A DNA stretch of 64,000 nt from Corallococcus sp. NCRR. GTDB lineage: Bacteria > Myxococcota > Myxococcia > Myxococcales > Myxococcaceae. The first letter of the stretch is position 1, and the number at the start of each line of letters is the position of its first letter. The position numbers and the translations under genes are program-made. The notes beneath the pieces were generated by a model. That model did not search any database, was not told the DNA's origin, and worked only from the letters and a program-made list of their open reading frames with translations. Positions 15,915-64,000 of the stretch are shown one piece after another. Where the stretch lies: the NCBI RefSeq assembly GCF_026965535.1, contig NZ_CP114039.1:8035461-8099460 (forward strand), given 5' to 3'.

Positions 15915-18599
15915 TCACCGGGCGCGGAGGAACGCCTTGACGCTCGGGGACTGGAGCTTCTGGGACTCGATGCACAGCCGGATGGACTCCAGGGCCCGGG
16001 CGAGCGAGCGCGGACCGCCTTCGATCTTGTCCACGCGGGGCGTGAGGAAGGTCTCCACCTGCGTCAGGTGGATGTCATCGCAGAGGCTCCCCGTCTGTCC
16101 AATCAGCCGGCCCAGCTCATCCGAGCGCAGCCGCTGGGTCAGCGCATCGAAGTGCGTCTGGTAGAAGTCCCACGCTAGCGACTGGGACTCCGGCGACATC
16201 AACGCCATCCGGAGGATGACCTGCGAGTCGCGCACGTCGAACTCCGGCGACACCACGAGCCCCAGCGCCCGCCACAGCAGGTCCGGGTTCCGGAAGTATG
16301 AAAGCGACGTCAGCAGCCGGGAACGCTCGGTGCGGTCCTGTTCCTTCTTCGCCGCCTCCAGCAGCGCGTCGAACAGCGCCGCGTCACCGTGCGTCGCCGC
16401 TCGCGGCAGCGCGGCACCGAACGCCTCCGGGTCCACCGACTTGCGGTCCTCAAGCCAGGCGCGCACCAGGGGCAGCGACTCCTTCACCAGCCGGGGGTCA
16501 TCCCCCAGACCGCCCGCCAGACGGAGGAACAGGGAGCGTGAATCCTTCACGGAGTCGTCCTCGCCCGGCTTCGGCACCCAGCCCAGGGCCCGCGCGCGCG
16601 CCGAGTAGAGCGAGGCCACCCACGCGCGAAAGCGCTGGCGCTCCTCGGGCGTGAGCTGATCCAGGCGCACGAGGTCCAGCATCAAGGCCCCGCTCTGCAC
16701 CACGAGCCGGTTCGTCGACTTCGCGGAGGCAGGCACCGCCTTCAGCGCCTCCCCCAGCGGCAGGTCGCCCCGGTTCACCGCCGCATCCACGTCCGCCCAG
16801 AGCGCCACCTGCTCCGCGGGAGTGAAGGCGGCGGGCGGAGTCGCGAGCAGCTTCGTCAACTGCTCGCGGGTGTAACCGCCCCGGTAGTAACCCGTGCCGC
16901 CCGCGTTGAGCAGCACCCACGCCGGGCACTGCTTCGTGGGCAACGCGACCTCTACGGACGGGCCCTGCAACATCGAGCACACCCGCGACGACTGGGTGCC
17001 CGTCCCCACGCGAAGACACACGGGCACCTGCCACTCCTGCCGCGAGTCCGCCTTGGAGCCCACGGGCAGGTACCGCTCCTGCGACAGCTTCACGGACGGA
17101 GCGCCGCCCGCCGGGCAGGACAGCTGCGCGGTGATGCGAGGCGCCCCGCTGCGCTCGATGAAGCCGCCAAAGGATTGCGCCACCTCCGGCCCCGCCGCCT
17201 GGGACAGGTCCGCGAGGAAGTCCTCCAGCGTCGCGACCTTCCACGCGTGCTTGCGGACATAGCCCCGGAGGAAGTCGCGGAAGCGCTCCGGCCCCAGCCA
17301 GGCCTCGTACATGGCGATGACGGACGAGCCCTTGTCATACGTCGTCCCGTTGTCGAACGAGCCCACGATGTCGTCGTTGCTCTCCACGGGCTTGCGCACG
17401 GGCAGCGCCGCCGCCAGCTCATCCGACGCCAGCGCGGAGCGGGTCGCGGACATGGCGCGCTCCTGCTGGAAGTCCCAGGACGGCTCCAGCCGGTCCACGG
17501 TCTGCCGGTCCAGCCACGCGGTGAAGGACTCGTTGAGCCAGATGTCGTTCCACCAGGAGCAGGTGACGACGTCCCCGAACCAGTAGTGGCCCAGCTCATG
17601 GTTGGCGATGACCGCGTACGACTTGCGGCGGGCCAGCGTCTCCTCGCCGGGCGGGATGAGCGTGAGCGGCTGCCCGAGCGCGACGATGCCGGGGTGCTCC
17701 ATGGTGCCCCAGTACCGGGGCACGACCGCCACATCGAGCTTCTCGTACGGATACGGCTGGTCGAAGAAGTCCTCCAGCCCCTTCACGATGCGAGGCGTGA
17801 TGCTCGCGGCGTAGCGCGTCTCCGCGCCCCGGCCCTTGGGGACGATGAAGCGCAGCGGCACGTTCGTGCGCCCCACGGTGCCAGCCTCCACCACGTCGAA
17901 CGGCCCCACCATGAAGGCCACGAGGTAGCTGGGCATCGGCTTGCTCTCCGCGAAGGTGACGCGCTCCAGGCCGTCCGCCAGGGGCTCGCGCGACACGACG
18001 GGATGATTGGCCAGCGCCACGTGTCCGGCCTTCACGGTGAAGCGCAGGCGCCAGGGCACCTTGAAGGTCGGCTCGTCGAAGCAAGGGAAGGCGCGGCGCG
18101 CGTCGATGGGCTCGAAGAACGTGTAGAGGTAGGGCTCACCGCCCTCCTCCACTCCATAGATGCCCTGGCTGCGCTCGCGGTCCACCTTGCCGGTGAAGTC
18201 GAGCACGAGCTGGGCCTGCCCAACGGGCAACTCCTCCGGAAGGAGCAATCCCAGACGTCCCTCGGGCGCGGTGACAGGCTTCGCGTCGAACGTGCGACCG
18301 CCCGCGGTGACGCGAGCCCGCGTCACGTCCACGTCCTGCGCATGCAGCCACACCTGGCGCACGGGCTCGCGGACCTCCACGTCGATGGTGACGCTGCCCG
18401 GGTACGTGTCCTCCGAGGGCACGAGCTTCAGGTCCAGCGCGTAGTGCACGGGCCGCACGGTGTCCGGCAGCCGCAGCGCGGGAGGCAGGGCCTCCGGCCA
18501 CGACACGGCGGGAGGCGCGGAAGCAGTCGGTGCGGCCTCTGGCGCGTGGGCACAGCGGACGGTCAACACCACCAAGGCGAGGAGTGGGAGCAGTCGCAT
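15915..18599 (-). CDS. M1-family aminopeptidase (aminopeptidase N-like), secreted
   Basis: HELGHYWFG zinc motif with WLNESFTAW glutamate 18-20 aa downstream. GTMEH exopeptidase motif. Signal peptide. Confidence 0.85.
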   Translation of the reverse strand: MRLLPLLALVVLTVRCAHAPEAAPTASAPPAVSWPEALPPALRLPDTVRPVHYALDLKLVPSEDTYPGSVTIDVEVREPVRQVWLHAQDVDVTRARVTAGGRTFDAKPVTAPEGRLGLLLPEELPVGQAQLVLDFTGKVDRERSQGIYGVEEGGEPYLYTFFEPIDARRAFPCFDEPTFKVPWRLRFTVKAGHVALANHPVVSREPLADGLERVTFAESKPMPSYLVAFMVGPFDVVEAGTVGRTNVPLRFIVPKGRGAETRYAASITPRIVKGLEDFFDQPYPYEKLDVAVVPRYWGTMEHPGIVALGQPLTLIPPGEETLARRKSYAVIANHELGHYWFGDVVTCSWWNDIWLNESFTAWLDRQTVDRLEPSWDFQQERAMSATRSALASDELAAALPVRKPVESNDDIVGSFDNGTTYDKGSSVIAMYEAWLGPERFRDFLRGYVRKHAWKVATLEDFLADLSQAAGPEVAQSFGGFIERSGAPRITAQLSCPAGGAPSVKLSQERYLPVGSKADSRQEWQVPVCLRVGTGTQSSRVCSMLQGPSVEVALPTKQCPAWVLLNAGGTGYYRGGYTREQLTKLLATPPAAFTPAEQVALWADVDAAVNRGDLPLGEALKAVPASAKSTNRLVVQSGALMLDLVRLDQLTPEERQRFRAWVASLYSARARALGWVPKPGEDDSVKDSRSLFLRLAGGLGDDPRLVKESLPLVRAWLEDRKSVDPEAFGAALPRAATHGDAALFDALLEAAKKEQDRTERSRLLTSLSYFRNPDLLWRALGLVVSPEFDVRDSQVILRMALMSPESQSLAWDFYQTHFDALTQRLRSDELGRLIGQTGSLCDDIHLTQVETFLTPRVDKIEGGPRSLARALESIRLCIESQKLQSPSVKAFLRAR

Positions 18600-18712
18600 G
18601 GGGGCGCAGCGTAGACCACGAGGATGTCTCCCGGTCTGTGAAACAGTGCGTTCAACCCTGGGAGCCGCTACGGTCCGGCTCCCCCCGCATCACCCTCAAG
18701 CCGAGGAAAAAC

Positions 18713-19603
18713 ATGTCTCGTCGCGGCAGCGGTCTCCCCACCCTCTTCGTGTCCCTGCTTCTCGTCGTGGGCTTCGCGTCGTCAGCCAATGCTGACACCT
18801 ACCAGACCTATGTGACGCCCACGGTCAATGGCTATCAGATTGGCACCTACCTGCCCAACCAGCCTACCGGGAACTTCAGCAGCGCCGCCGACACGGCCCG
18901 CCGCTTCTGTCAGGACAAGGGCCACAGCGGCGCGCAAAGCTTCACCACCGCCATCCGGGGCTCCGCGTACACGTACATCATTGGCACGAACGGCGTGGGC
19001 CCCTGGAACACGACCGGCAACTCCAACGTGACGATGATTGAAACCATCATCTGCTTCAACTCCAGCTCGGACGTCACGTACACGACGCCCACCGTCAACG
19101 GCTACCAGGTCGGCACCATCCAGCCCAGCTACCCGACCGGCAACTACAGCACGCCCGCCGACACCGCCCGCCGCTTCTGCGTGGACCAGGGCCACACTGG
19201 CGCTCGCACCTTCACCACAGCCATCCGTGGCTCCGCGTACACGTACATCGTCGGCACGAACGGCGTCGGCAACTGGAACACCACCGGCAACTCCAACGTG
19301 ACCATGCTGGAGACCATCACCTGCTTCAACGCGCCGGTCCTCACCTACGCGGTGCCGAAGGTGAACGGCTACCAGATCGGCACCATCCAGCCCAACTACC
19401 CCACCGGGAACTTCAGCACCCCGGCGGCGACCGCCCGCCGCTTCTGCCTGGACCAGGGCCACGTCGACGTGAGCAGCTTCACCACCGCCATCCGAGGCAC
19501 CGCCTACACGTACATCGTCGGCACGAACGGCGTCGGTAGCTGGAACACCACCGGCAACTCCAACGTGACGATGATCGAAACCGTCACCTGCATCACGCAG
19601 TAA
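18713..19603 (+). CDS. Secreted protein composed of three tandem ~87-aa repeats
   Basis: ATG at 18713 with GAGGAAAAAC RBS. Signal peptide. Repeats begin TPTVNGYQ.GT..P..PTGN.S..A.TARRFC.D.GH and end FTTAIRG.AYTYI.GTNGVG.WNTTGNSNVTM.ET..C. Confidence 0.7.
   Translation: MSRRGSGLPTLFVSLLLVVGFASSANADTYQTYVTPTVNGYQIGTYLPNQPTGNFSSAADTARRFCQDKGHSGAQSFTTAIRGSAYTYIIGTNGVGPWNTTGNSNVTMIETIICFNSSSDVTYTTPTVNGYQVGTIQPSYPTGNYSTPADTARRFCVDQGHTGARTFTTAIRGSAYTYIVGTNGVGNWNTTGNSNVTMLETITCFNAPVLTYAVPKVNGYQIGTIQPNYPTGNFSTPAATARRFCLDQGHVDVSSFTTAIRGTAYTYIVGTNGVGSWNTTGNSNVTMIETVTCITQ
18794..19600 (+). repeat. Three tandem direct repeats (~261 bp each) inside the CDS
   Basis: DNA-level identity is visible across the units, e.g. 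CCGCCCGCCGCTTCTG and GGCACGAACGGCGT(G/C)GG recur three times. Unit boundaries are approximate. Confidence 0.7.
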
Positions 19604-23143: not shown

Positions 23144-23227
23144 GACCCACTTGCGGGTCCCCGCGCGCTCGCACAGCGGACGCTCCATCAGCAGCTGTCA
23201 GCTCAACGCGGGCATCACGCGGAGCGC

Positions 23228-24205
23228 TCAGCCGGTGATGTCGCAGCGTCCCCGCTTGATGTCGTGGTCCGACTCGGTCGACTGGACCGCCACCACGCCG
23301 CCGGACAGCGTGGCGTTGGCGCAGGTCTGCCGGTTGAAGAACACGTAGTCCAGCTTCGCGTTCCCCTTGGTGGGCTGCATGTCGCGGCAGGCGCCATCCG
23401 GGCAGTACTCCCCGTCCGTCTGGTCCGCCTCCCGGAACTCGCCCAGGCCGGTATGCGATCCGCCCCGCGTCAGCCGGTAGATGTTGTCCATGTGCGCGGA
23501 CGCCGGCCCGATGTTGAAGTCGCCCGTCAGAACCACGATCTTCGACGCGACATGCGGGTCGGTCAGCGCCTTGATGGCCTCGAGCTGCCGCCGCTTCCCG
23601 CTCAGGTCAGGGTCGTTCTCCGCCACGGCCAGGTGCGTGTTGCACGCGCGGACCGTCTTCGTGAAGCCGGCCATCACGAACTCCCCGCACTGGAGGGTGA
23701 AGTGCTTATCGCCGTCCACGAACGGAAGATCCGCGACCTTGTATTGGGTCAGGGTGCCCTTGACCATGAGCACCTGGCCCTGATGGTACGGCTCTTGGCC
23801 CTCGACGGTGCCAAAGGTGCAGGACGGGTGCGGCTTCGCCACTGAGTTCGGGTCGGAGACCGGCCCGGTGCGCCGCAGCGACTCAAACCGCAGACTCCAA
23901 CCCTGCGGTTCGTAGGTCTTCTTCAGGTCGTCGAACTGCTTCCAGCCGACCTCCTGAAGGCCGACCACGTGGGGCTTCCAGGTGTCGATCTGGTTCTTGA
24001 TCGAAGTGAGGAAGGCGGGATCCCCGGCGTGGCCGCCCGGACAGCCTTCGACGTTATGGCTGATGACCCGCATTGGCTGGGTGGCCGCCAACGCGGCCGC
24101 CGCGCGAGCGGTTCGAGGCTCGAACGTTTCGTCATCCGTGGTTCCGCAGGCGGTGAGCGCACACGTCGTCATCATCAGCGACACCTTCAGCGCCTTCATT
24201 GTCAT
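23228..24205 (-). CDS. Endonuclease/exonuclease/phosphatase (EEP) family lipoprotein
   Basis: Lipoprotein signal (MMTTCALTAC), VVGLQEV motif and a C-terminal SDHD motif. Confidence 0.75.
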   Translation of the reverse strand: MTMKALKVSLMMTTCALTACGTTDDETFEPRTARAAAALAATQPMRVISHNVEGCPGGHAGDPAFLTSIKNQIDTWKPHVVGLQEVGWKQFDDLKKTYEPQGWSLRFESLRRTGPVSDPNSVAKPHPSCTFGTVEGQEPYHQGQVLMVKGTLTQYKVADLPFVDGDKHFTLQCGEFVMAGFTKTVRACNTHLAVAENDPDLSGKRRQLEAIKALTDPHVASKIVVLTGDFNIGPASAHMDNIYRLTRGGSHTGLGEFREADQTDGEYCPDGACRDMQPTKGNAKLDYVFFNRQTCANATLSGGVVAVQSTESDHDIKRGRCDITG

Positions 24206-24321
24206 TCTACCTCTTTCGCCGGTTGAACGGCCTGGCGGTAGAGCGACTTTACCCGACTAATCTGACTTCGAAGGGTGGAGGCTCCTGGGGTTGTCCGGCG
24301 GGTTGCCAGACAAGCATGGCG

Positions 24322-25170
24322 TCATCCGTTGATTCGCACCATCGCGACGTCGTAGCGGCGCTCCGTCACACTCCCTGTGGCGGCCTTGCCGGGGCGGGAC
24401 ATCTTCCCGGTCTTCTCATCCACGTAGAAGCGGTTGTTCGGGTTCGTGTCCTTGCCCTTGCTCTCGTGGCTCGTCCCAGGATCGTGGAAGGTGTAATAGG
24501 TGCGGCCCTTCTCGTCGACGCCGCGGCCCGTGATGGTCACGAAGTGGTCTGTCAGGTGATCCACGTTGTAGTTGGAGTCCTTGTGGCTGACGCCCACGAC
24601 CACCGGCTTGCCGGCGCCCAGTTGCTGGTCGATGTACTTGCGGCCCTCGGCGGCCTTCTTCGAATCCACCGTGAGCGCGCCGACACGGTTCTCGCTTCGC
24701 CCCACCTGGATGAGGTGTTTCGAGTCCTGGACGGTCACGCCCTTCGCGCCCGCCATCGCCTTCGCTGCGTCGAAGCACGCCGTGCCACTGGGCGTGTAAC
24801 CGTGGCCGCCCTTGAACTGGCTGTAATACGGCACCTTCACGTGCACCGCCCGGCCTGGTTTGGCGGGGTCCGCGTGAGGCGTGTCCACGGGGGGCCGCGT
24901 CCTGTTGGCCCCTTGCGCCGTGGCGGCGCCTGGATGAAGCCCACGCCCCGCCTGGACAAAGGCATCGACGATGCCCTGTCCGCCCGCCGCGGCCCTACGA
25001 ACATCCTTCGAATCGAAGCCGTCCCCGAGCCGCAGGCGCTGTCCTGCCTGGATCTTGTTCGGGTCCTGGATGTTGTTCGCCTTGGCCAGCGCATCCACCG
25101 TGGTGTGATGCCGCTTCGCAAGGACAGACAGCGAGTCACCCGGACGGACGTGAATCCCAGGAACCTTCAT
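24322..25170 (-). CDS. LysM-domain protein with C-terminal Peptidase_C39_2-like (YvpB/BtrH-like) cysteine-peptidase domain
   Basis: N-terminal LysM (GDSLSVLAKRHHTTVDALAKANNIQDPNKIQAGQRLRL). C-terminal domain VPYYSQF..GHGY...TACF.AA.AMA ... DHFVTITG, with a putative Gln-Cys...His catalytic arrangement. No signal peptide seen. Confidence 0.6.
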   Translation of the reverse strand: MKVPGIHVRPGDSLSVLAKRHHTTVDALAKANNIQDPNKIQAGQRLRLGDGFDSKDVRRAAAGGQGIVDAFVQAGRGLHPGAATAQGANRTRPPVDTPHADPAKPGRAVHVKVPYYSQFKGGHGYTPSGTACFDAAKAMAGAKGVTVQDSKHLIQVGRSENRVGALTVDSKKAAEGRKYIDQQLGAGKPVVVGVSHKDSNYNVDHLTDHFVTITGRGVDEKGRTYYTFHDPGTSHESKGKDTNPNNRFYVDEKTGKMSRPGKAATGSVTERRYDVAMVRING

Positions 25171-25379
25171 GGAGCCTCCCTGCCAGGTCAGTCGCTCAAG
25201 TGGCGAAACCCATCACTGGCTCCCCTTCAACGCGCGTCAGCCCAGCGTGTTTGCGACTCACGGCGCGCTCTGGCCAGACCTGTCGGGAAACGCACTGGGG
25301 ACCAACGCACGACGGCCCGGTCGACCTCTTCACGAGGCCGCCGGGCCGAGCACTTCCGGGGGAACGCTTCCGCCGGGGA

Positions 25380-27014
25380 CTACTTGTTGATGCGCACCAT
25401 GGCCACGTCGTAGTGGCGGTCCGTCACGTAGCCGTTCGCGGCCTTGCCGGGGCGGTACATGTTCCCGGTCTTGTCATCCACGTAGAAGCGGTTGTTCGGG
25501 TTCGTGTCCTTGCCCTTGCTGGCGTTGGTCGTGCCCGGGTCGTGGAACGTGTAGTAGGTGCGGCCCTTGTCGTCGACGCCGCGGCCCGTGATGGTCACGA
25601 AGTGGTCCGTGAGGCCGTCCACGTTGTAGTTCGAGTCCTTGTGGCTGACGCCCACGACCACCGGCTTGCCGGCGTCCAGCTGCTTGTCGATGTAGTTGCG
25701 GCCCTCGGCGGCCTTCTTCGAGTCCACCTTCAGCGCGCCAACCCCGTTCTCGCTCTTGCCCACCTGGATGCGGCGGTCCGGGCCCAGCACCGTGGCGCCA
25801 GAGTCGCGCGCCATCGCCGTCGCTGCCTTGAAGCACGCCGTGTCGCTCGCGGTGTAGCCGTGGCCGTTCTCGAACTGGCTGTAGTACGGCACCTTCACGT
25901 GCACCGCCGGCTTGTCCTTGGCCCCGGCCACCTGCTGCGTGTCCGTGCGGTCCGCCTCCGTGGTGGGCTTGGACGTGTTCGTGCCCTTGCCTTCCGCGCG
26001 GCCCGGCTTCGAGTCGCCGCTCACGGACGGGGGAACCACGCCCGTGTTGCTGTTGGCCGGCTTCGTCGTGGCGCCCGACTTCTCCTGCTTCAGCATCGCG
26101 AGCGCGTCCTTCGCCTCCGACTTGAAGCGGTTGGCCACGCCCTTCTGCACGTCCTTGGAGCTGCCGGAGAAGTGCACCAGGGTGCCGTTCGCGTTGGTGC
26201 GGCCGCGCTCGGCGTAGATGTCCTTGATGAGCTGCTCGTCGCTCACCTTCGCGGGGTCGCGGCCGTTGAGCGCCTTCTTGAAGATGTCATCCGCCTTGCC
26301 CGGGCCGTGCTGCACGGAGGTGGACCAGGCCACGTCCCGCAGCGCCGCGGAGCGCTGATCCAGGTCGATGCCCGTCGCCTTCTTGATGTTGGCGGCGCCC
26401 ACGTCGTAGTGCGTGGCCTTGATGTAGTCGTGCTGCGCCTTGTCGAAGCCCTTGGGGTCCTTGGCCGCCAGCTGCTTCCACGCGGCGGAGAACTCCGCGG
26501 TGCCCGGCTTGCTGCCCGACAGCGCCTTGTGGAACTCCGGGTTCGTCTTCTTCAGCGAGTTGACGAAGGACTGCGCGGAGCCGTTCGCGGAGGCGAACTG
26601 GTAGGAGCCGTAGGACACGCCGCCCTTGTCGCCCTTGCCCGTGGACACGGTGCCGGGGCCGCGCGCCTCGTACTTGCGGCTCAGCCCGCCCAGCTCTCCG
26701 TTCGTCGCGCTGCTGGAGGCCGTGTTCTTCGCGGGCGTCGTCGCCTTCGCGCCGTCCGTGGCCTGCGTGAAGCTGTCACCCGAGGTCTTCGTCCCCACGC
26801 TCGACTTCGAGGTGCCCTTCGTGTCGAAGCCGTCCTGCACCTTCAGCGTCTTGCCGGCCTGGATCTTGTTCGGATCCTGGATGTTGTTCGCCTTGGCCAG
26901 CGCATCGACGGTGGTGTTGTAGCGCTTCGCGAGGCCGGAAAGCGTGTCACCCGACTGGATGCGAACGTTGGAGACGGTCACGGAGAAGACCCCTCTATGT
27001 CTGGCCGCGAACAA
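25380..27014 (-). CDS. LysM-domain protein, longer paralogue with extra ~190-aa central domain and the same C39-like C-terminal domain
   Basis: The C-terminal 190 aa are ~80% identical to the preceding gene, with long identical DNA stretches (e.g. GTAGAAGCGGTTGTTCGGGTTCGTGTCCTTGCCCTTGCT at ~24425 and ~25482). LysM N-terminus. The central domain (GVSYGSYQFASANGS...) is of unknown family. Confidence 0.6.
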   Translation of the reverse strand: MFAARHRGVFSVTVSNVRIQSGDTLSGLAKRYNTTVDALAKANNIQDPNKIQAGKTLKVQDGFDTKGTSKSSVGTKTSGDSFTQATDGAKATTPAKNTASSSATNGELGGLSRKYEARGPGTVSTGKGDKGGVSYGSYQFASANGSAQSFVNSLKKTNPEFHKALSGSKPGTAEFSAAWKQLAAKDPKGFDKAQHDYIKATHYDVGAANIKKATGIDLDQRSAALRDVAWSTSVQHGPGKADDIFKKALNGRDPAKVSDEQLIKDIYAERGRTNANGTLVHFSGSSKDVQKGVANRFKSEAKDALAMLKQEKSGATTKPANSNTGVVPPSVSGDSKPGRAEGKGTNTSKPTTEADRTDTQQVAGAKDKPAVHVKVPYYSQFENGHGYTASDTACFKAATAMARDSGATVLGPDRRIQVGKSENGVGALKVDSKKAAEGRNYIDKQLDAGKPVVVGVSHKDSNYNVDGLTDHFVTITGRGVDDKGRTYYTFHDPGTTNASKGKDTNPNNRFYVDDKTGNMYRPGKAANGYVTDRHYDVAMVRINK

Positions 27015-37576: not shown

Positions 37577-37727
37577 GGGGCGCGGCAGGATGGGGGTCCT
37601 GTGACGCCGCGTCAAGGCACTCGGTGTGGCTGGACGTGAAGCGCCGGGAATAGCCCGCGCCGGAATTCGTTTGCCCGGCCTCCGTCCAACCGTGCACTTC
37701 TTCCGCCCCACCCGCCGGCGGGAATCC

Positions 37728-39254
37728 ATGACACTCCCAGGCACGCGACATACGGTGGCCGCCGCCATGCGCCGCGCTCTCCTCCCCGCCAGCGTCGTAG
37801 CCCTCTTCCTGTCCGCCTGCACCCACACGGCCGCCACGCCAGACGGCGCCCCACGCGACACCCTGCCCGGGGTGACGCACGCCCTGCTGGAGACTCTGGA
37901 AGCGGACGGCGCGCTCGCGGGCGCGTACGTGGTGGACGCGCGCACCGGCGAGCCCCTCTTCACCCACCGCGAGAACGTACGGCTGTTGCCCGCGTCCACC
38001 ATGAAGGTGGTGTCCACGTCCGCCGCGCTGTCCGCGCTGGGGGCGGACTTCCGCTTCACGACGCCGGTGTTCCTGGAGGGCTCGCAGGCGGGAGGCCTGT
38101 TCCTGGGCGACGTGGTGGCGCAGGCGTCCGGAGACCCGTCGCTGGGCTCGTGGCGCTTCCCGGAGACGGCGCTCGCGTGCGACCGCATCGCGGAGGCCTT
38201 CCAGGCGCGAGGCATCCACCAGTGGCGCGGCAACGTGCGCATCTCCGGCACGGACGGCCTGGACGGCGGCATGGGCCCGGGCTGGGCCTGGGATGACGCG
38301 GCCTATGCCTACAGCGCGGCGCCCACGCCCTTCGTCTTCCGCGAGAACGTGGTGGACCTGGCGCTGGCGCGCGCCCCCGGCGCCACCTGCGCGGACGCGC
38401 CCTCCGTCCAGTGGACCCCCACCTTCGCCACGCTGTCCGCGGTGGTGAACGTGGACGTCAACGCCGAGCGCGCGAACCTGGCCTGCGTGCGAGGCGGTGG
38501 CGGCGTGCGCTGCACGTGGCGCTCGCCCACGGGCGGGCCCTGCCCCCAGGCCGCCGCGGTGAAGCTGTCCGTGGACGCGCCGGAGGCCCTCTTCGCCGCG
38601 TGCGTGGACGACGCGCTGGCGCGGCATGGCATCACGCGGCTGCCGCTGTCCCTGGAGGCCCCCACCCCGCCCATGCCCCCCATGCCGTCACCGCTGGTGG
38701 AGTTGATCAGCCCGCCCCTGTCGGAGCTGGTGCGCGTGACGAACAAGGAGAGCCTCAACCTGTACGCGGAGCGGCTGGGCATGCGCTTCGCCCGCGAGCG
38801 CACCGGCCAGGAGGGCTACACCGCCCTGCGCACGGCCCTGGTGGCGGAGCTGGCGCGCCGGGGCGTGCCCACCAAGGACCTGCGTCCCGTGGATGGCAGC
38901 GGCCTGTCCCGCTACAACCTGGCGTCTCCCCGGGGCATGGCGCGCGTGCTGCTCACCAGCCTCCAGGAGCCGTATGGCGCCGCGCTGGTGGACAGCCTGC
39001 CGGTGCTGGGCGTGGACGGGACGTTGGCGGGCCGCAAGACGAAGCCGTCCACCGCGGGCCGCATCCGCGCGAAGACAGGGACGCTCACAGGCCAGAAGTG
39101 CTTCGTGGGCGTGGCGGAGCGGCCCAACGACAAGGAGCACCCGCGCGTCGTCTTCGCGCTGATGCTCGGCAACATGGACGAGGGCACGAAGCCCAACGCC
39201 AACGAGACCTTCGACACCTTCTCCACCGCCCTGGTGGAGCTGCCCCTGCGATGA
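37728..39254 (+). CDS. dacB: D-alanyl-D-alanine carboxypeptidase/endopeptidase (PBP4, peptidase S13)
   Basis: Lipoprotein-type signal (LFLSACTHT), STMK active-site motif and S13 family architecture. Confidence 0.8.
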   Translation: MTLPGTRHTVAAAMRRALLPASVVALFLSACTHTAATPDGAPRDTLPGVTHALLETLEADGALAGAYVVDARTGEPLFTHRENVRLLPASTMKVVSTSAALSALGADFRFTTPVFLEGSQAGGLFLGDVVAQASGDPSLGSWRFPETALACDRIAEAFQARGIHQWRGNVRISGTDGLDGGMGPGWAWDDAAYAYSAAPTPFVFRENVVDLALARAPGATCADAPSVQWTPTFATLSAVVNVDVNAERANLACVRGGGGVRCTWRSPTGGPCPQAAAVKLSVDAPEALFAACVDDALARHGITRLPLSLEAPTPPMPPMPSPLVELISPPLSELVRVTNKESLNLYAERLGMRFARERTGQEGYTALRTALVAELARRGVPTKDLRPVDGSGLSRYNLASPRGMARVLLTSLQEPYGAALVDSLPVLGVDGTLAGRKTKPSTAGRIRAKTGTLTGQKCFVGVAERPNDKEHPRVVFALMLGNMDEGTKPNANETFDTFSTALVELPLR

Positions 39255-39291: not shown

Positions 39292-41472
39292 ATGAAGTCC
39301 AGAATCGCAGTCACGGCCGCCGCGCTGCTGTTGCCGCTCGTGTCCGGAGCCGCGGGGAAGGCTCCCGCGAAGCCCGCCGCCGCGGAGAAGAAGCCCGTGG
39401 AGACGGCCTACCACGGCACCACCGTGGCGGACCCGTACCAGTGGATGGAGTCCGCGACGGATCCGAAGGTGCAGCAGTGGACCGACGCGCAGAACGCCTT
39501 CACGCGCGCGTACCTGGACAAGCTCCCGGGCCGCGAGCCCCTGCGCCAGCGCATCTCGGAGCTCCTGTCCTGGAAGTCGCCCTCCTACGGCGGCCTGGAC
39601 GAGCGGGGCGGCACGCTGCTGGGGCTGAAGTTCCAGCCGCCCAAGCAGCAGCCCACGCTCATCGTGGTGGGCTCGCTGGACGACACGTCGAAGGAGCGCG
39701 TGCTGGTGGACCCCACGGTCGTGGACACGTCCGGCAAGACGACCATCGACTGGTTCCAGCTGTCGCACGACGGCAAGAAGGTCGCCGTGTCCATGTCCAA
39801 GGGCGGCACGGAGAGCGGTGACGTGAGCGTCTGGGACGTGGCCTCCGCCAAGGCGATGCCCAACGAGCTGGTCCCGCGCGTCAACGGCGGCACGGCGGGC
39901 GGCAGCCTCGCGTGGAACGCGCAGGGCACGGGCTTCTTCTACACGCGCTATCCGCGCGGCGAGGAGCGCCCGCCCGTGGACCGCGAGGTGTACCAGCAGG
40001 TGTACTTCCACACGCTGGGCACGCCCACGGAGAAGGACACGTACGCGCTGGGCAAGGACTTCCCGCGCATCGCGATGACGGACCTGGAGTCCAGCGACGA
40101 CGGCCAGTACACCTTCGCGCGCGTGGCCAACGGCGACGGCGGCGAGTTCGACCTGTACCTGCACGGCCCCAAGGGCACCTGGACGCAGGTGGCGAAGTAC
40201 GCGGACAAGGTGGTGTCGGCGCGCTTCGGCAGCGACGGCGCGGCGTACCTGCTCAGCCGCAAGGACGCGTCGCGCGGCAAGGTGCTGCGCCTGCCGCTGG
40301 CCACGCCCACGCTGGACAAGGCGACCGTGGTCGTCCCCGAGGGCAAGGCGACGGTGCAGGCCGTGGTGCCCACGAAGAGCCGCCTGTACCTGCTGGAGCA
40401 GTTGGGCGGCCCCTCGCAGCTGCGCATGGTGGACCTGACGGGCAAGGAGCTGGGGCTGGTGCCCACGCTGCCGGTGTCGGCGGTGGGCGGCCTGGTCCGC
40501 CAGGGCGCGGACGACCTGCTGGTCGTCAACGGGAGCTTCACCCAGCCGGCCGCGTGGTTCCGCTACTCGGCGGCGGACAACAAGCTCACGAAGACGGCGC
40601 TGGCGCGCACGGCGCCCATCGACATGAGCGACGTGGAGGTGGTGCGCACGGAGGCCACGTCCAAGGACGGCACCAAGGTGCCGCTCACCATCCTGAAGAA
40701 GAAGGGCACGAAGCTGAACGGGAACAACCCCACGTGGCTCACCGGCTACGGCGGCTTCAACGTGTCCATCAACCCGGGCTACAGCCCGCTGACGGGCATG
40801 TGGCTGGAGCAGGGCGGCGTGTTCGCGGTGGCGAACCTGCGCGGCGGCTCGGAGTTCGGCGAGGAGTGGCACAAGGGCGGCTCGCTCACGAACAAGCAGA
40901 ACGTGTTTGACGACTTCTACGCGTGCGCGAAGCTGCTCACGGACCAGAAGTACACGCAGCCCAAGAAGCTGGCCATCCAGGGCGGCAGCAACGGCGGCCT
41001 GCTGATGGGCGCGGCCCTGACGCAGCACCCGGAGCAGTACGGCGCGGTGGTGGCGCGCGTGGGCATCTACGACATGCTGCGCACGGAGCTGACGCCCAAC
41101 GGCCAGTTCAACGTCACGGAGTACGGCTCGGTGAAGGACCCGGAGCAGTTCAAGGCGCTGTATGGCTATTCGCCGGTGCACCGCGTGAAGGACGGGACGA
41201 AGTACCCGCCGGTGCTCTTCACCTCCGGCGCCAATGACCCGCGCGTGGATCCGTTCCACTCGCGCAAGATGGTGGCCCGGATGCAGGCGGCCACGGCGTC
41301 CCCCAAGCCCATCCTGCTGCGCGCCAACGCGGAGACGGGCCACGGCATGGGCACGCCGCTGTCCGCGCGCATCGAGGAGGAGGTGGACGTCTACTCCTTC
41401 GTCTTCAACGAGCTGGGCATGACGTACAAGCCCAACGCGACGAAGAAGGTCTCCGCGCCCGCGCCGCAGTAG
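39292..41472 (+). CDS. Prolyl oligopeptidase (S9A family), secreted
   Basis: Signal peptide, N-terminal beta-propeller, and a C-terminal alpha/beta-hydrolase domain with GGSNGGLL nucleophile motif. Confidence 0.85.
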   Translation: MKSRIAVTAAALLLPLVSGAAGKAPAKPAAAEKKPVETAYHGTTVADPYQWMESATDPKVQQWTDAQNAFTRAYLDKLPGREPLRQRISELLSWKSPSYGGLDERGGTLLGLKFQPPKQQPTLIVVGSLDDTSKERVLVDPTVVDTSGKTTIDWFQLSHDGKKVAVSMSKGGTESGDVSVWDVASAKAMPNELVPRVNGGTAGGSLAWNAQGTGFFYTRYPRGEERPPVDREVYQQVYFHTLGTPTEKDTYALGKDFPRIAMTDLESSDDGQYTFARVANGDGGEFDLYLHGPKGTWTQVAKYADKVVSARFGSDGAAYLLSRKDASRGKVLRLPLATPTLDKATVVVPEGKATVQAVVPTKSRLYLLEQLGGPSQLRMVDLTGKELGLVPTLPVSAVGGLVRQGADDLLVVNGSFTQPAAWFRYSAADNKLTKTALARTAPIDMSDVEVVRTEATSKDGTKVPLTILKKKGTKLNGNNPTWLTGYGGFNVSINPGYSPLTGMWLEQGGVFAVANLRGGSEFGEEWHKGGSLTNKQNVFDDFYACAKLLTDQKYTQPKKLAIQGGSNGGLLMGAALTQHPEQYGAVVARVGIYDMLRTELTPNGQFNVTEYGSVKDPEQFKALYGYSPVHRVKDGTKYPPVLFTSGANDPRVDPFHSRKMVARMQAATASPKPILLRANAETGHGMGTPLSARIEEEVDVYSFVFNELGMTYKPNATKKVSAPAPQ

Positions 41473-55284: not shown

Positions 55285-55584
55285 ATGCCCGCCCCCTGGC
55301 TCAAGGCCGTGCAGACCGGGGTGGAGCTGACGGTGCTCGTCCAGCCGCGCGCGTCCCGCACCCGGGTGATGGGCGAGCATGACGGCCAGCTGAAGATCCA
55401 GCTCGCCGCGCCGCCCGTGGACGGTGAAGCGAATGCGGCCCTGGTGGAATTCATCGCCAAAACGATGGGCGTGCCGCGTCGGCAGGTAACACTCGTGGCG
55501 GGTGACACGTCGCGCCGTAAGCGATTGAGGGTGGAAGGGGTTGATGCGGCGGCGGCCGAGGCTGTTATCTCTGGTGGACCGTGA
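55285..55584 (+). CDS. YggU/DUF167-family protein
   Basis: Family pattern [46 protein letters not shown]. Confidence 0.8.
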
Positions 55585-56882
55585 GGCCACGCATGCTCCG
55601 CCTGTTCGCCTTCCTGATGATGCTGCTGGCCTCGCCGGGCGTGTTCGCACAGGACGAAGGTCCGCGGGGCATCCACGCGACGGAGGCCGTCGTCACGGAC
55701 GCCGCGCTCGTGCCCCACGCCCGCCCCGCCATCGTCGCGGGCGAGCTGAAGACGCAGCGCTTCGTCATCCTGCACACCGCGAAGGCGGCGGGCGCGGCCC
55801 GGGCGCTGGCCGGGCAGATTGAAGGCGTGCGGGACGCCTTCGGCGCGATGCTCGGGCGCGACTGGCCGGGCACCACCGAGATCCGCCTGGGCGTGGGCCG
55901 CCAGGAGTTCGAGGCGCTGGCGCTCCCCGGGGGCAAGCCTCCGGGCTGGGCCGTGGCGCTCGCCTACCCCGGGCATCAGATCATCCTGCTGGACGCGCTC
56001 AGCCTGAGCGACACGGAAGGGCCCACCACGCTGCGGCACGAATTGGCGCACGTGGCGCTGGGCCAGCTGGCGAAGGACTGGCCGCGCTGGTTCCAGGAGG
56101 GCGTGGCGCAGAACCTCACCGACGAGCGCTACTCCGTCGCCCACTACAGCGCCCTCTTCCGCGCGGTGACGCAGGAGCGCGTCTTCCACTTCGAGGACCT
56201 GTCCGACGAATGGCCGGACGTGCCCGCGGACGTGGAGATCGCCTACGCGCAGAGCGCCGCGTTCGTGGCCTTCCTCACCGGCAAGCACGGCGCTCACGCC
56301 ATGGGCCAGCTGGTGGACGGCGTGCGCGCGGGTGAGCCCTTCGAGCAGGCCTTCGGCAAGGCGTTCCGCACGTCGCTGCTCTTGGAGGAGCAGGACTGGC
56401 GCGAGGGGCTCGCGGCCCGCTACGGCTGGCTGCCGCTCACCACCAGCTCCGCGCTGCTGTGGCTCACCGCCTCCATCCTGTGCGTGGCCGCCTTCGTGCG
56501 CCGCATGCGCCAGAAGTCCGAGCGGATGACGGAGCTGGCCGCGGAGGACGCCGCCGAGGACGCCGCGCTGCGCCTGCTCGCCGCCGCCCGCGCCGCGGGG
56601 CCCGTCCCCGTGGACGGCTCCGAGCCGCTGTCCCCCGCCCTCCCCTGGCCGGAGTGGCCCGGCGCCACCCCGCCCGTGGCCCCGCCCAATCCGTCCGCCC
56701 CCAGCCAGCCGGAGGCCCTGGAGGGCGCGCCAGAAGCGCTGGAGTCGGGCGCGGGCCATCCGGAGGGCCCGGACGGTCAGGACATGGACATGGACGACGA
56801 GGAGCCGGAGTCCTCCAGCGGCGAGTACGAGCTGGATGGCGAGGCCCCGTCGGGCCGCCCGCCCAAGCCGACGCTCCACTGA
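55581..56882 (+). CDS. Secreted/membrane-anchored peptidase-MA-like (HExxH) protein with acidic C-terminal tail
   Basis: Signal peptide, [12 protein letters not shown] zinc motif, internal TM segment and a D/E-rich C-terminus. Confidence 0.55.
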
Positions 56883-60686: not shown

Positions 60687-62906
60687 TCAGCGGCACTTCA
60701 TCTCGGCCTTCTTCGAGGCCATCTGCTCGGCGATGCCGTCACCCGGCACGGCGTAGTCCTCCACCGCCTGGAAGTCCGAGCAGCCGCCCACGTTGTTCAA
60801 CGCGTTCTGCGCCTGCGTGGAGCAGAAGGCCACCACGCGGTTCAGGTTCGTGTTGCCCTTGTAGAAGTCGAAGCCCATCTTCCAGATGCGGCAGCCACGG
60901 CGGCGGTCCTCGCGGTCGGCGAAGTGCTTGCCGCGCTGGTAGGCGGAGGCCGCCAGGTCCTGGAACATGTTCTTCCGGTAGAAGGACAGGTGCGACTCCG
61001 CCAGCTCCGCCATGATGCGCTTGTCCGTGGCCAGCGCGTCCTTGAACGGCGCCACCGCGCGCTCGGGGTCGTCGTTGCTGAGCGAGCTCTCACCCGTCTT
61101 GAAGAGCTGATCCACGTTGGACACGTCGCGGATGAGATCGTCCGCCAACTGGTGGAACTGCGCCTGGTCCTCCTTCGAGCGCAGCTTCTGCAGCGTCGCC
61201 ATCGCCTCGCTGCCGCGGCCGGCCCAGTAGTCCATCATCGCCGCCTGGACGAGCTTCGGGGCGTAGCGCTTGGCGAACATGGCGCGCACCTCGCTGGCCT
61301 GATCCACGCCCAGCCCGTCCTCCTGGAGGATGTCGGACACGGGGCAGGTCCACGGCTGGGCGTTGCGGTCCACGCGGTTGCGGGCCACCAGGAACTTCAC
61401 GAACATGGCGTCCTTGGGGCGCCACTCGTTCCTGCGCAGGTGGCCCTCCAGGCGGAGCGTCTGACCGATGGGCGGCTCCAGGTCCTCCTTGCTCTGCTTC
61501 TGGCACCACACTTCCATGTACTGCTGGCAGCGCTGGACGGCCGGGCCCCACTGCGAGTTGTTCAGGTAGCGGTTGCAGTCGAACTTCGCGCGGTCCACGA
61601 ACTGCTCGGCCGTCTCCTTCGCCTTGGAGCGGGCGCGGCGGAAGTACTCGCTCTCCTTCGGAATCTTGCGCAGGAACTCCAGCGCGTCCTTCTCGCGGTT
61701 GAGCTCGATGGCCTTCTTCGCGGCCTCGAAGTTGTCGAAGGCCTCCTTCTCCAGCTTGATGCGCCGCACGAGGGTGTTCGCCTCGGCGTTGATGGGGTCC
61801 ATGTCCAGCGCCTGCTCACACGCCTTCTCGGCGCGGCCCCAGTCGGGAGCCCCCATCTCATTGGAGGAGTAGGAGCGGCACTCGCTGAGGAACTCCTGCA
61901 CCTGCTGCGCGGGATCCAGCGGCGCGGCCGGCCCCGTCTTCTGCGCCTTCTGGGGCGCCCCGATGGAGGTCTTCACCACCGCCGCCACCGCCAGCAGCGC
62001 CATCACGCCGCCCGCGACCACCAGCAGCTTGCGCTTCTTGTCGGCCTCGGGCGCGGCCCTGCCGCCACGACGGGCCGGCGCCGCGCCCGTGCCCGGACGG
62101 CGCGAGGGCGTGTCCGCGGCCTCGTAGGTCATCTCCACCACGCCGAACTGGAGGACGTCCCCAGGCTGCAGGTCGACGAACTCCTCGCCCAGCAGCTCGC
62201 CGTTGAGCAGCGTGCCGTTGGCGCTGCCCAGGTCGCGCGCGAGCACGGCGGAGCCCTCGCGCTTCACCTCCGCGTGCTTCCGGCTCACAGAGTCGTCATC
62301 CAGGATGACCGCCGCCGGAGGCGCCCGGCCCACCAGCACCGTGCCGTTGATGGGATAGGACTTGCCCGCCCACGGGCCCGTCATTCCCTTGAGCATCGGA
62401 CCGGAGCTCGCGCCCGCCGCCGCGTCACCCGCGCCCGCCCGCGAGGGCGTGGAGCGCGCGGGCCGCTTCGCCAGCGCGCCCTCGGGCTTCGCGGCCCCGT
62501 TCTGCGTAGCCTTGGCGCGGATGCTGGGCATGGCGCGCGTGCCCTTCACGGGCGCGTCCGAGAGCGTCGCCGGGTCGCCGGGAGGAGGCGTCGCCGCGCG
62601 GCGGCCGCTGGTGCTCCGGGCGCTGCCCTTGAGCTTCAGCTCATAGTCGCCCAAGAGCACCTGCGAGGCCGGCGTCAGCGCCGTGGGCCCCTCGATGCGC
62701 TCGCCGTCCACGAAGGTGCCGTTCTGGCTGCCCCCGTCCTCGACGTAGACCGTGCCGCCCTCCACGTAGATGCGCGCGTGCTGCCGCGACACGCCACCTT
62801 CCGTGAGGACCAGGTCATTGCCCTGCTGGCGGCCAATCTTCAGCTCGCCCGCGATCTCGTGCTCGTGCTCAGTGCCGTCAGGGTGACGGACGACCAGGGT
62901 AGGCAT
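60687..62906 (-). CDS. Double FHA-domain protein with TM segment and large C-terminal domain
   Basis: Two FHA domains (…IGRQQGNDLVLTEGGVSRQHARIY…, …VGRAPPAAVILDDDSVSRKHAEVK…), a TM helix (LLVVAGGVMALLAVAAVV) and a ~430-aa C-terminal domain. Confidence 0.8.
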   Translation of the reverse strand: MPTLVVRHPDGTEHEHEIAGELKIGRQQGNDLVLTEGGVSRQHARIYVEGGTVYVEDGGSQNGTFVDGERIEGPTALTPASQVLLGDYELKLKGSARSTSGRRAATPPPGDPATLSDAPVKGTRAMPSIRAKATQNGAAKPEGALAKRPARSTPSRAGAGDAAAGASSGPMLKGMTGPWAGKSYPINGTVLVGRAPPAAVILDDDSVSRKHAEVKREGSAVLARDLGSANGTLLNGELLGEEFVDLQPGDVLQFGVVEMTYEAADTPSRRPGTGAAPARRGGRAAPEADKKRKLLVVAGGVMALLAVAAVVKTSIGAPQKAQKTGPAAPLDPAQQVQEFLSECRSYSSNEMGAPDWGRAEKACEQALDMDPINAEANTLVRRIKLEKEAFDNFEAAKKAIELNREKDALEFLRKIPKESEYFRRARSKAKETAEQFVDRAKFDCNRYLNNSQWGPAVQRCQQYMEVWCQKQSKEDLEPPIGQTLRLEGHLRRNEWRPKDAMFVKFLVARNRVDRNAQPWTCPVSDILQEDGLGVDQASEVRAMFAKRYAPKLVQAAMMDYWAGRGSEAMATLQKLRSKEDQAQFHQLADDLIRDVSNVDQLFKTGESSLSNDDPERAVAPFKDALATDKRIMAELAESHLSFYRKNMFQDLAASAYQRGKHFADREDRRRGCRIWKMGFDFYKGNTNLNRVVAFCSTQAQNALNNVGGCSDFQAVEDYAVPGDGIAEQMASKKAEMKCR

Positions 62907-62913
62907 GGGCGCG

Positions 62914-64000
62914 TCAGTCCTCGCGGAAGATGCTCATGTTCACGGGGATGCCCTTGCGCTGGAGCTCGTCGTAGAACTTCGGGACGAAGCCCGACGCCAC
63001 GTAGCGACCGCGCACCTTGTGGTCCTCCGTGAAGCCGTCCTGCTTGTAATAGAAGATGTCCTGCAGGGTCACGATGTCGACCTCCATGCCGGACACCTCC
63101 GTGATGAAGCAGATCTTGCGGGAGCCGTCGGAGAAGCGCGTCTGCTGCACGATGAGGTGCACGGCGCTGGCGATCTGCTCGCGGATGGCCTTCACCGGCA
63201 GCTCCATGCCGGACATGAGCACCATCGTCTCCAGGCGGGCAATCGCGTCGCGCGGCGTGTTCGCGTGCAGCGTGGTGAGCGAGCCGTCGTGGCCGGTGTT
63301 CATGGCCTGGAGCATGTCCAGCGTCTCACCGGAGCGGCACTCGCCCACCACGATGCGGTCCGGCCGCATGCGCAGGCAGTTCTTCACCAGCTCGCGGATG
63401 GTGATGGCGCCCTTGCCTTCCAGGTTGGGCGGGCGGCTCTCCAGTTGCACCCAGTGGTCCTGCGGCAGCTGAAGCTCCGCCGCGTCCTCCACCGTGATGA
63501 TGCGCTCACCCTCCGGGATGAACGAGCTGATGATGTTCAGCGTCGTCGTCTTCCCGGAGCCCGTGCCGCCGGAGATGACGATGTTGCGCCGGGCCGTGAC
63601 GCACATCTCCAGGAACTCCGCCATCTGCGCGGTGACGGTCTTGTATTTGATGAGGTCCTGGATCTTCAGCGCGTCCTTCTTGAACTTGCGGATGGTGATG
63701 CAGGGACCCTTGAGCGCCAGCGGCGGGATGATGGCGTTCACGCGGCTGCCGTCCTTGAGGCGCGCGTCCACCAGCGGGCTGGATTCGTCGATGCGGCGGC
63801 CAATGGGCGCCACGATGCGCTCGATGACGCCGAGCACCGCCTGGTTGGAGGAGAACGTCTTCTCCGACAGGGTCAGCTTGCCCTTGCGCTCGATGTAGAT
63901 CTGGTTGGCGTGGTTCACCATGATCTCGCTGATCTCTTCCGACGCGAGGAACGCCTCCAGGGGCCCCAGGCCCAGCGCCTCGTTGATGACGTCGGTGAGC
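62914..64000 (-). CDS. CpaF/TadA-family secretion ATPase (5' end outside window)
   Basis: Walker A GGTGSGKTT, and the conserved ending LHANTPRDAIARLETMVLM…FYDELQRKGIPVNMSIFRED. The ORF runs off the window end. Confidence 0.85.
   Translation of the reverse strand, partial: LTDVINEALGLGPLEAFLASEEISEIMVNHANQIYIERKGKLTLSEKTFSSNQAVLGVIERIVAPIGRRIDESSPLVDARLKDGSRVNAIIPPLALKGPCITIRKFKKDALKIQDLIKYKTVTAQMAEFLEMCVTARRNIVISGGTGSGKTTTLNIISSFIPEGERIITVEDAAELQLPQDHWVQLESRPPNLEGKGAITIRELVKNCLRMRPDRIVVGECRSGETLDMLQAMNTGHDGSLTTLHANTPRDAIARLETMVLMSGMELPVKAIREQIASAVHLIVQQTRFSDGSRKICFITEVSGMEVDIVTLQDIFYYKQDGFTEDHKVRGRYVASGFVPKFYDELQRKGIPVNMSIFRED

Follow-up and report, generated by a model that had tools for sequence, protein, structure and literature searches.

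Three described type VI secretion system (T6SS) effectors come closest to the proteins treated here. BtaeB (Bfe7) of Bacteroides fragilis, a GA3 T6SS effector of 617 aa, is loaded jointly with BtpeA via the adaptor BtapC (PMC13402684, citing Li et al. 2025, Cell Host Microbe 33:1901); a large N-terminal region loads it onto the adaptor/VgrG complex, and structures of BtaeB with its partner BtaiB are available (PDB 9JDD, 9JG8/9JG9). In Vibrio cholerae, the C-terminal domain of VgrG3 (PDB 4NOO/4NSO; Pfam PF21277) is paired with TsiV3. Tae17 of Acinetobacter baumannii is a modular T6SS cargo effector composed of an Ig-like domain, LysM, a lytic transglycosylase and a Cys/His amidase, and is delivered via VgrG (bioRxiv 10.1101/2024.06.29.601107). 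Here we describe two adjacent genes of Corallococcus sp. NCRR, which lie in a stretch of 64,000 nucleotides with a G+C content of ~70% (assembly GCF_026965535.1, contig NZ_CP114039.1, positions 8,035,461 to 8,099,460; hereafter the window). The longer of the two combines relatives of the BtaeB and VgrG3 C-terminal domains behind a LysM domain, and we think it fairly probable that it encodes a bifunctional antibacterial effector that hydrolyses peptidoglycan, is matched by a periplasmic immunity protein and has a diverged, truncated paralogue; delivery as T6SS cargo is the leading candidate route.

Both genes are encoded on the minus strand. The long gene spans 25380-27014 as a maximal open reading frame (ORF) starting with TTG (544 aa; residue numbers below refer to this frame), or 25380-26981 from a GTG codon (533 aa, protein opening MTVSN). 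The GTG at 26981 is most likely the start, because an RBS-like GAGGGG (resembling a ribosome-binding site) precedes it and because the predicted N-termini of orthologues in at least nine species read MTVSN or MTVSS. The long protein consists of LysM (aa 18-59, 26838-26963; PF01476, E 4.5e-15), a T6SS_VgrG3-like_C domain (aa 108-300, 26115-26693) and a papain-fold domain resembling that of BtaeB (aa 370-544, 25383-25907). The short paralogue (24322-25170, 282 aa) contains LysM (25027-25152; E 2.6e-14) and the BtaeB-like papain-fold domain (24325-24849) without the muramidase domain in between. With 53.3 and 55.8 bits, the two LysM domains score well above the PF01476 gathering cut-off of 20.9. 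The proteins are 72% identical over their C-terminal 207 residues (BLASTP, E 2e-100) and 55% identical over their N-terminal 77 residues (E 8e-24), and both contain the motifs PYYSQ, TACF and TDHFVTITG. ORFs, BLASTP and Pfam thus agree with the original prediction, made from the DNA letters alone, which had described adjacent same-strand genes with a common LysM and C-terminal domain and had singled out these motifs. The short protein is identical to the NCBI entry 'MULTISPECIES LysM ... [unclassified Corallococcus]' (P0002). Scanning a single genome for each species yielded 68 related loci, and the three-domain architecture of the long protein is kept in 21 of them (L001-L021), from Corallococcus, Myxococcus sp., Pyxidicoccus, Cystobacter and Archangium.

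The C-terminal domain shares its fold with BtaeB. A sequence search of the PDB returned 9JDD, 9JG8 and 9JG9, described as 'Peptidase C39-like domain-containing protein' (E 2e-20), of which 9JDD bears the title 'type VI secretion system effector-immunity complex BtaeB CTD-BtaiB from Bacteroides fragilis', and phmmer matched 9jdd_A (E 2.3e-20) and 9jg8_C (E 4e-19) over ~142 residues. An AlphaFold2 model of the domain, built with 19 homologues, is very confident (predicted local distance difference test score, pLDDT, 95) and has the same three-dimensional fold as the BtaeB C-terminal domain in 9JDD. In this model, a Cys stands at the N-terminus of the core helix 25-34, a His opens strand 102-111 and an Asp follows the next strand, which, judged by the modelled secondary-structure positions, is the canonical papain arrangement. 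The putative triad corresponds to Cys394 (25833-25835), His471 (25602-25604) and Asp492 (25539-25541) of the long protein and to Cys132 (24775-24777), His209 (24544-24546) and Asp230 (24481-24483) of the short one. All 46 domain copies aligned, which come from related loci, have the Cys and the His; 45 of them carry Asp and one carries Glu as the third residue. The Cys and His of BtaeB align with those of our proteins. The original prediction of a C39-like cysteine peptidase therefore stands as far as fold and Cys/His conservation are concerned; a non-peptidase fold, or Cys and His away from the catalytic positions, had been named as grounds for abandoning it, and we found a papain fold with both residues in canonical places. 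The domain does not qualify as a formal member of Peptidase_C39_2 or BtrH_N, since neither window protein matches PF13529 in Pfam and both remain below the PF14399 cut-off of 29.7 bits (15.2 and 13.2 bits). These YvpB-like families of clan CA agree with our proteins in fold class and in Cys-His order. Our proteins score below the gathering thresholds and form a separate branch, without Pfam coverage and used as a toxin module; a few members of this branch reach PF13529 or PF14399.

For the central domain of the long protein, left without a family by the original prediction, Pfam provides a clear identity: it matches PF21277, T6SS_VgrG3-like_C, with 181.8 bits against a cut-off of 27 (E 1.7e-53) and covers model positions 1-182 of 183, and it also matches the VgrG3 C-terminal domain structures 4NOO/4NSO (E about 1e-30). 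All 22 orthologues retain Glu and Asp in the KYE...GD motif; in the long protein they are Glu116 (26667-26669) and Asp129 (26628-26630), which from the VgrG3 literature we take to be the catalytic pair. By its sequence, the domain is a lysozyme-like muramidase module. It differs from its V. cholerae counterpart in being placed between LysM and a second hydrolase domain: Pfam detects no VgrG, gp27 or gp5 domain in the long protein, whose N-terminus is LysM and not a VgrG spike, and no TsiV3-like protein was detected. The long protein has the functional layout of Tae17, and of Tse4, both modular bifunctional peptidoglycan hydrolases and T6SS cargo effectors, with which it shares an N-terminal LysM, a glycan-cleaving domain and a Cys/His papain-like amidase or peptidase domain, and which by analogy would also be its counterparts in being leaderless and acting in the periplasm. 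The catalytic families of Tae17 are other ones (lytic transglycosylase, Tae3-like amidase).

In the short protein LysM already starts at residue 7, in the maximal long ORF at residue 18, and neither ORF can be extended upstream, so that no Sec or lipoprotein signal is possible in either protein. The lack of a signal peptide, noted at the outset for the two copies, is real and extends to the whole family, of which only 3 out of 161 members have a hydrophobic, signal peptide-like stretch at the N-terminus. This survey relied on a crude hydrophobicity test, in which the secreted product of the neighbouring gene described below was clearly positive and a lipoprotein control intermediate.

A wider view of the C-terminal domain comes from a profile search of 1.84 billion representative sequences (50% identity), which recovered 1,758 proteins with E<=1e-3, of which 1,104 reach E<=1e-10. 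Mostly the domain is found at the C-terminus, behind variable N-terminal parts. In 104 representatives, the fused domains were for the most part clearly related to the cell wall and included PG_binding_1 (33), LysM (11), PG_binding_3 (9), VgrG3-like_C (8) and PG_binding_2 (3), with single occurrences of SLT, Hydrolase_2, Peptidase_M15_4, Amidase_2, VanY, SH3_3, SLH and eCIS_core; PF13529 was matched by only three of these relatives. Such family-wide fusions to peptidoglycan-binding and peptidoglycan-hydrolase domains fit the cell wall-hydrolase and antibacterial role that had been proposed from the DNA letters. Furthermore, RHS-repeat proteins of Flavobacterium and other Bacteroidota loci end in a BtaeB-like domain as their C-terminal tip. 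The wall-related fusions, the leaderless family, the RHS tips and the lack of phage matches point to the BtaeB-like domain as a predicted toxin module that targets peptidoglycan and leaves the cell independently of Sec, and away from an endolysin.

An endolysin of a prophage or tailocin, leaderless because it is released through a holin, would share its classic layout with the long protein, which joins peptidoglycan-binding, muramidase and peptidase domains behind no signal peptide. We nevertheless regard this origin as extremely improbable: 50,697 phage genomes gave no tblastn match to the domain, a pattern scan of IMG/VR viral contigs gave no confirmed match, phage, holin and tail genes are absent from the window and the related loci, and the gene occupies a stable syntenic chromosomal site across genera together with a secreted partner. 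The two viral searches led us to reject a phage endolysin origin, and no lysis cassette was seen.

It is likewise doubtful, if not quite to the same degree, that these proteins are endogenous autolysins of myxospore formation or germination, or of division, with an unidentified export route and the neighbouring gene as periplasmic regulator or inhibitor. Layouts of LysM and a hydrolase are common among autolysins, NCBIfam reports weak matches, through LysM only, to DipM, ActS and MltD, and housekeeping genes surround the long gene. Housekeeping periplasmic autolysins, however, normally bear Sec or Tat signals, whereas this family is leaderless. For both catalytic domains, the nearest relatives that have been characterised are interbacterial toxins, the RHS toxins of Bacteroidota are tipped by the same domain, the ratio of nonsynonymous to synonymous substitutions (dN/dS) among long-gene orthologues is high (0.43-0.55), and the presence of the paralogue differs between strains. 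The autolysin and endolysin readings are therefore less likely than that of an antibacterial effector.

Two further types of protein were observed among the relatives. Those of the Myxococcus type (L022-L039, for example L034:6034-7653 of M. xanthus strain AM003) combine LysM and the C-terminal peptidase domain with a central region of ~310 aa that has no Pfam match and no detectable similarity to the VgrG3-like domain (hhalign probability 0.6%). They lack the secreted neighbour of the Corallococcus gene, and in some loci a small lipoprotein gene (cluster c24) is located upstream. In Myxococcus sp. and Pyxidicoccus, a 481-aa leaderless SLT-LysM-Peptidase_C39_2 protein is encoded directly 3' of the three-domain orthologue (L010:8720-10162, plus strand, with a counterpart in L015), which represents a second, independently assembled combination of a glycosidase and a peptidase.

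The secreted neighbour itself, which we call c1, is the candidate immunity gene (27174-28208, plus strand). It encodes 344 aa with a hydrophobic N-terminus and a signal peptide ending ...ASAQ/G, ~8 conserved cysteines and three beta-rich domains. A divergent gene of ~340 aa of this type lies immediately upstream in 20 of the 21 three-domain loci, even where the remaining flanking genes differ. A leaderless putative effector next to a partner with signal peptide and conserved cysteines is the arrangement expected of a T6SS cargo effector-immunity pair with a periplasmic target. The domains of c1 appear to follow those of the effector: the full three-domain form occurs only alongside effectors that also bear the muramidase domain, and on one metagenomic contig (L069), next to a protein with the papain-fold domain only (P0005), lies a divergent gene whose product corresponds to the C-terminal domain of c1 alone (profile 193-343, E 1.4e-34). 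A search for other cases of this c1 domain beside papain-fold-only genes found L069 alone. Homologues with only the N-terminal domain of c1 are orphans in Hyalangium and in metagenomes; orphan immunity genes are common. The C-terminal domain of c1 is probably the BtaiB-like one. No match of c1 to BtaiB, TsiV3 or any PDB chain was found at the sequence level, and the Corallococcus candidate differs from BtaiB in its size, which is about three times that of BtaiB, in having several domains and in its divergent transcription.

Among the possible routes for this effector we favour delivery as T6SS cargo, since each of the two catalytic domains has precedents among T6SS effectors. Several observations weigh against this reading and against the pairing with c1. 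Neither vgrG, hcp, PAAR, adaptor nor other secretion genes are found within ~8 kb of the effector gene in L001-L021 or among the scanned genes of the window, and clustering and Pfam scans of all 68 related loci likewise detected no neighbouring secretion system, so that the search for T6SS or other secretion-system adjacency suggested with the original prediction came out negative. BtaeB, in contrast, is encoded within a T6SS locus, and Tae17 beside vgrG. The N-terminus is LysM only and includes no recognisable T6SS loading domain: where BtaeB has its large N-terminal region and Tae17 its Ig-like VgrG-binding domain, the Corallococcus proteins carry only LysM, with or without the muramidase, ahead of the papain-fold domain. 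Relatives are also found in metagenome-assembled genomes of Actinomycetota, and because of these the BtaeB-like domain is not tied to a single secretion system. Moreover, the papers citing the BtaeB structure work do not state an enzymatic activity for BtaeB. As for c1, effector and candidate immunity gene are divergent and not co-directional, a layout atypical for effector-immunity pairs, a resemblance to BtaiB is not pinned to one particular domain of c1, and no immunity-like gene was found adjoining the short copy. Orphan T6SS effectors are known, and missing linkage does not exclude a T6SS. Actinomycetota, to our knowledge, lack this system; a context resembling the type VII secretion system was considered for their homologues and was not supported.

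The same leaderless proteins could alternatively be weapons of predation, which leave the cell through a contact-dependent killing machinery (the Tad-like Kil system or the needle-less type III secretion system, T3SS*) or by vesicle release or lysis, while the neighbouring gene product protects the predator's own wall. In their paper on the Kil system, Seef et al. 2021 (PMC8460266) report that prey peptidoglycan is degraded locally at contact sites, and say of the cell-wall hydrolase toxin that it 'remains to be discovered'. A leaderless family that is conserved in predatory Cystobacterineae and has no T6SS gene linkage would suit this gap, as would the second leaderless protein, of the SLT-LysM-Peptidase_C39_2 type, directly downstream in L010 and L015. 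At 60.7-64 kb of the window we also noticed a protein with forkhead-associated (FHA) domains and a CpaF-like ATPase. The former (60690-62906, minus strand, 739 aa) has two FHA domains and also matches Yop-YscD_cpl; the latter is a T2SSE/CpaF-type secretion ATPase (62917-63999, minus strand) whose gene is cut by the edge of the window. Together they are reminiscent of Kil cluster 1 of M. xanthus, which is FHA-rich and Tad-like; the two genes are ~34 kb away from the effector genes, with no link shown to them. This distance, together with the absence of kil or T3SS gene linkage, speaks against the predation route, as do the T6SS precedents for both catalytic domains. A dedicated periplasmic immunity protein and its orphan copies, furthermore, suit antagonism against kin and competitors better than killing of prey only. 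We consider predation an unlikely explanation overall. Its most specific form is more doubtful still, namely that the LysM-muramidase-peptidase proteins and the SLT-LysM-Peptidase_C39_2 type are the sought wall-degrading cargo of myxobacterial contact-dependent prey killing by the Kil/Tad-like system or T3SS*, with an export mechanism new for peptidoglycan hydrolases and c1 as a dual self-protection whose modules match the effector modules.

The original prediction had seen the short and long genes as a recent duplication, and this view was not upheld. Synonymous divergence (dS) between the two is 0.35 in the C-terminal domain and 0.72 in LysM, which exceeds the values for long-gene orthologues across Corallococcus and a Myxococcus sp.: these amount to 0.08-0.10 within the C. 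coralloides/exercitus group and to 0.25-0.30 for the most distant comparisons. In a neighbour-joining (NJ) tree, the short copy falls within the Corallococcus clade on a long branch. The long stretches of identical DNA that had been pointed out are real, with runs of 47, 42 and 38 nt in the C-terminal domain (175 aa; 80.5% aa and 85.6% nt identity), and are not unusual, since comparisons of long-gene orthologues at similar divergence, with the same strong codon bias in third-position G+C content (GC3), have longest identical runs of 41-80 nt. The long gene is about as divergent from its orthologues of the C. sicarius group (82-83% aa, 86-87% nt identity) as from the short gene. GC3 of the short gene is 0.84 (0.73-0.89 by region), compared to 0.97 in the long gene. 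Nucleotide and codon identity, identical runs, dN/dS, NJ tree and synteny together led us to reject both recent duplication and gene conversion. We best describe the short gene as an older paralogue, or as a copy from another Corallococcus lineage, that has lost the muramidase module. Because dN/dS between the short and the long gene is 0.34 and the short-copy triad is intact, the short gene is probably still functional.

Its genomic placement adds to this picture. Relative to other Corallococcus, the short paralogue is part of an insertion of ~2.2 kb (23144-25310), with homology ending at ~25310 and restarting at 23143. In six syntenic Corallococcus loci from five named species (L001-L006) this insertion is absent, and a hydroxylase-like gene directly follows the long gene. 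Homology to these loci continues for ~70 bp beyond the stop codon of the long gene and includes a GC-rich hairpin directly 3' of it (25307-25353, minus strand; 15-bp stem without a U tract, -46.9 kcal/mol, z -3.4), the sequence of which is 94% conserved downstream of the L001 orthologue and kept in other Corallococcus species. The hairpin likely marks the transcript end, in which case the short gene would form a transcription unit of its own. The insertion also carries a gene for a lipoprotein of the endonuclease/exonuclease/phosphatase (EEP) family (23228-24205, minus strand; PF03372, E 1e-13), which is missing at this position in other Corallococcus loci and has no homologue among the 68 loci.

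Taken as an antibacterial effector, the long protein might act as follows. It would leave the cell by a non-classical and probably contact-dependent route, as it has no Sec signal, with T6SS cargo delivery as the leading candidate, and would reach the periplasm of target cells as its site of action. There, LysM could anchor it to the murein, the VgrG3-like domain could cut the glycan backbone and the BtaeB-like domain, using Cys394, His471 and Asp492, could cut an amide or peptide bond in the stem peptides; we infer the glycan and stem-peptide cleavages from domain homology and conserved residues. The c1 product would serve as periplasmic immunity protein, whose BtaiB-like C-terminal domain may block the peptidase domain. 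The short gene, as an older and faster-evolving paralogue in an insertion specific to the strain lineage, probably provides a second, peptidase-only effector, which may depend on c1, the immunity protein of the long gene.

Some other features of the window are worth recording. A protein of 758 aa (30863-33139, minus strand; Pfam MVP_shoulder, 3e-45, and Vault repeat domains), homologous to the Major Vault Protein of eukaryotes, is encoded not far from the effector genes, and members of its cluster (c3) occur near the effector locus in ~10 related myxobacterial loci. Within an ORF of 357 aa (18530-19603), positions 18814-19595 (plus strand) form a tandem repeat with a 267-bp (89-aa) unit in 2.9 copies with 83% matches. 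The window is also rich in peptidases, with genes at 37626-39251 (plus), 39292-41469 (plus), 15915-18599 (minus) and 55581-56879 (plus) that encode an S13 D-Ala-D-Ala carboxypeptidase, an S9 prolyl oligopeptidase, an M1 aminopeptidase and an MA-clan peptidase.

Myxobacteria use contact to lyse both prey and rival kin, and the enzymes that breach the wall in these encounters are largely unidentified. The Corallococcus locus offers a candidate that can be tested: a leaderless protein, conserved across five genera, with two predicted peptidoglycan-hydrolase domains and an apparent periplasmic immunity protein beside it. The analysis also places the recently solved BtaeB toxin fold in a large family without Pfam coverage, which is mostly fused to peptidoglycan-binding modules and is reused in RHS toxins as well as in myxobacterial proteins. 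If the modules of c1 really follow those of the effector, the pair would be a tidy case of co-modular effector-immunity evolution. The locus would gain in importance should these proteins turn out to be carried by the contact-killing apparatus of myxobacteria.

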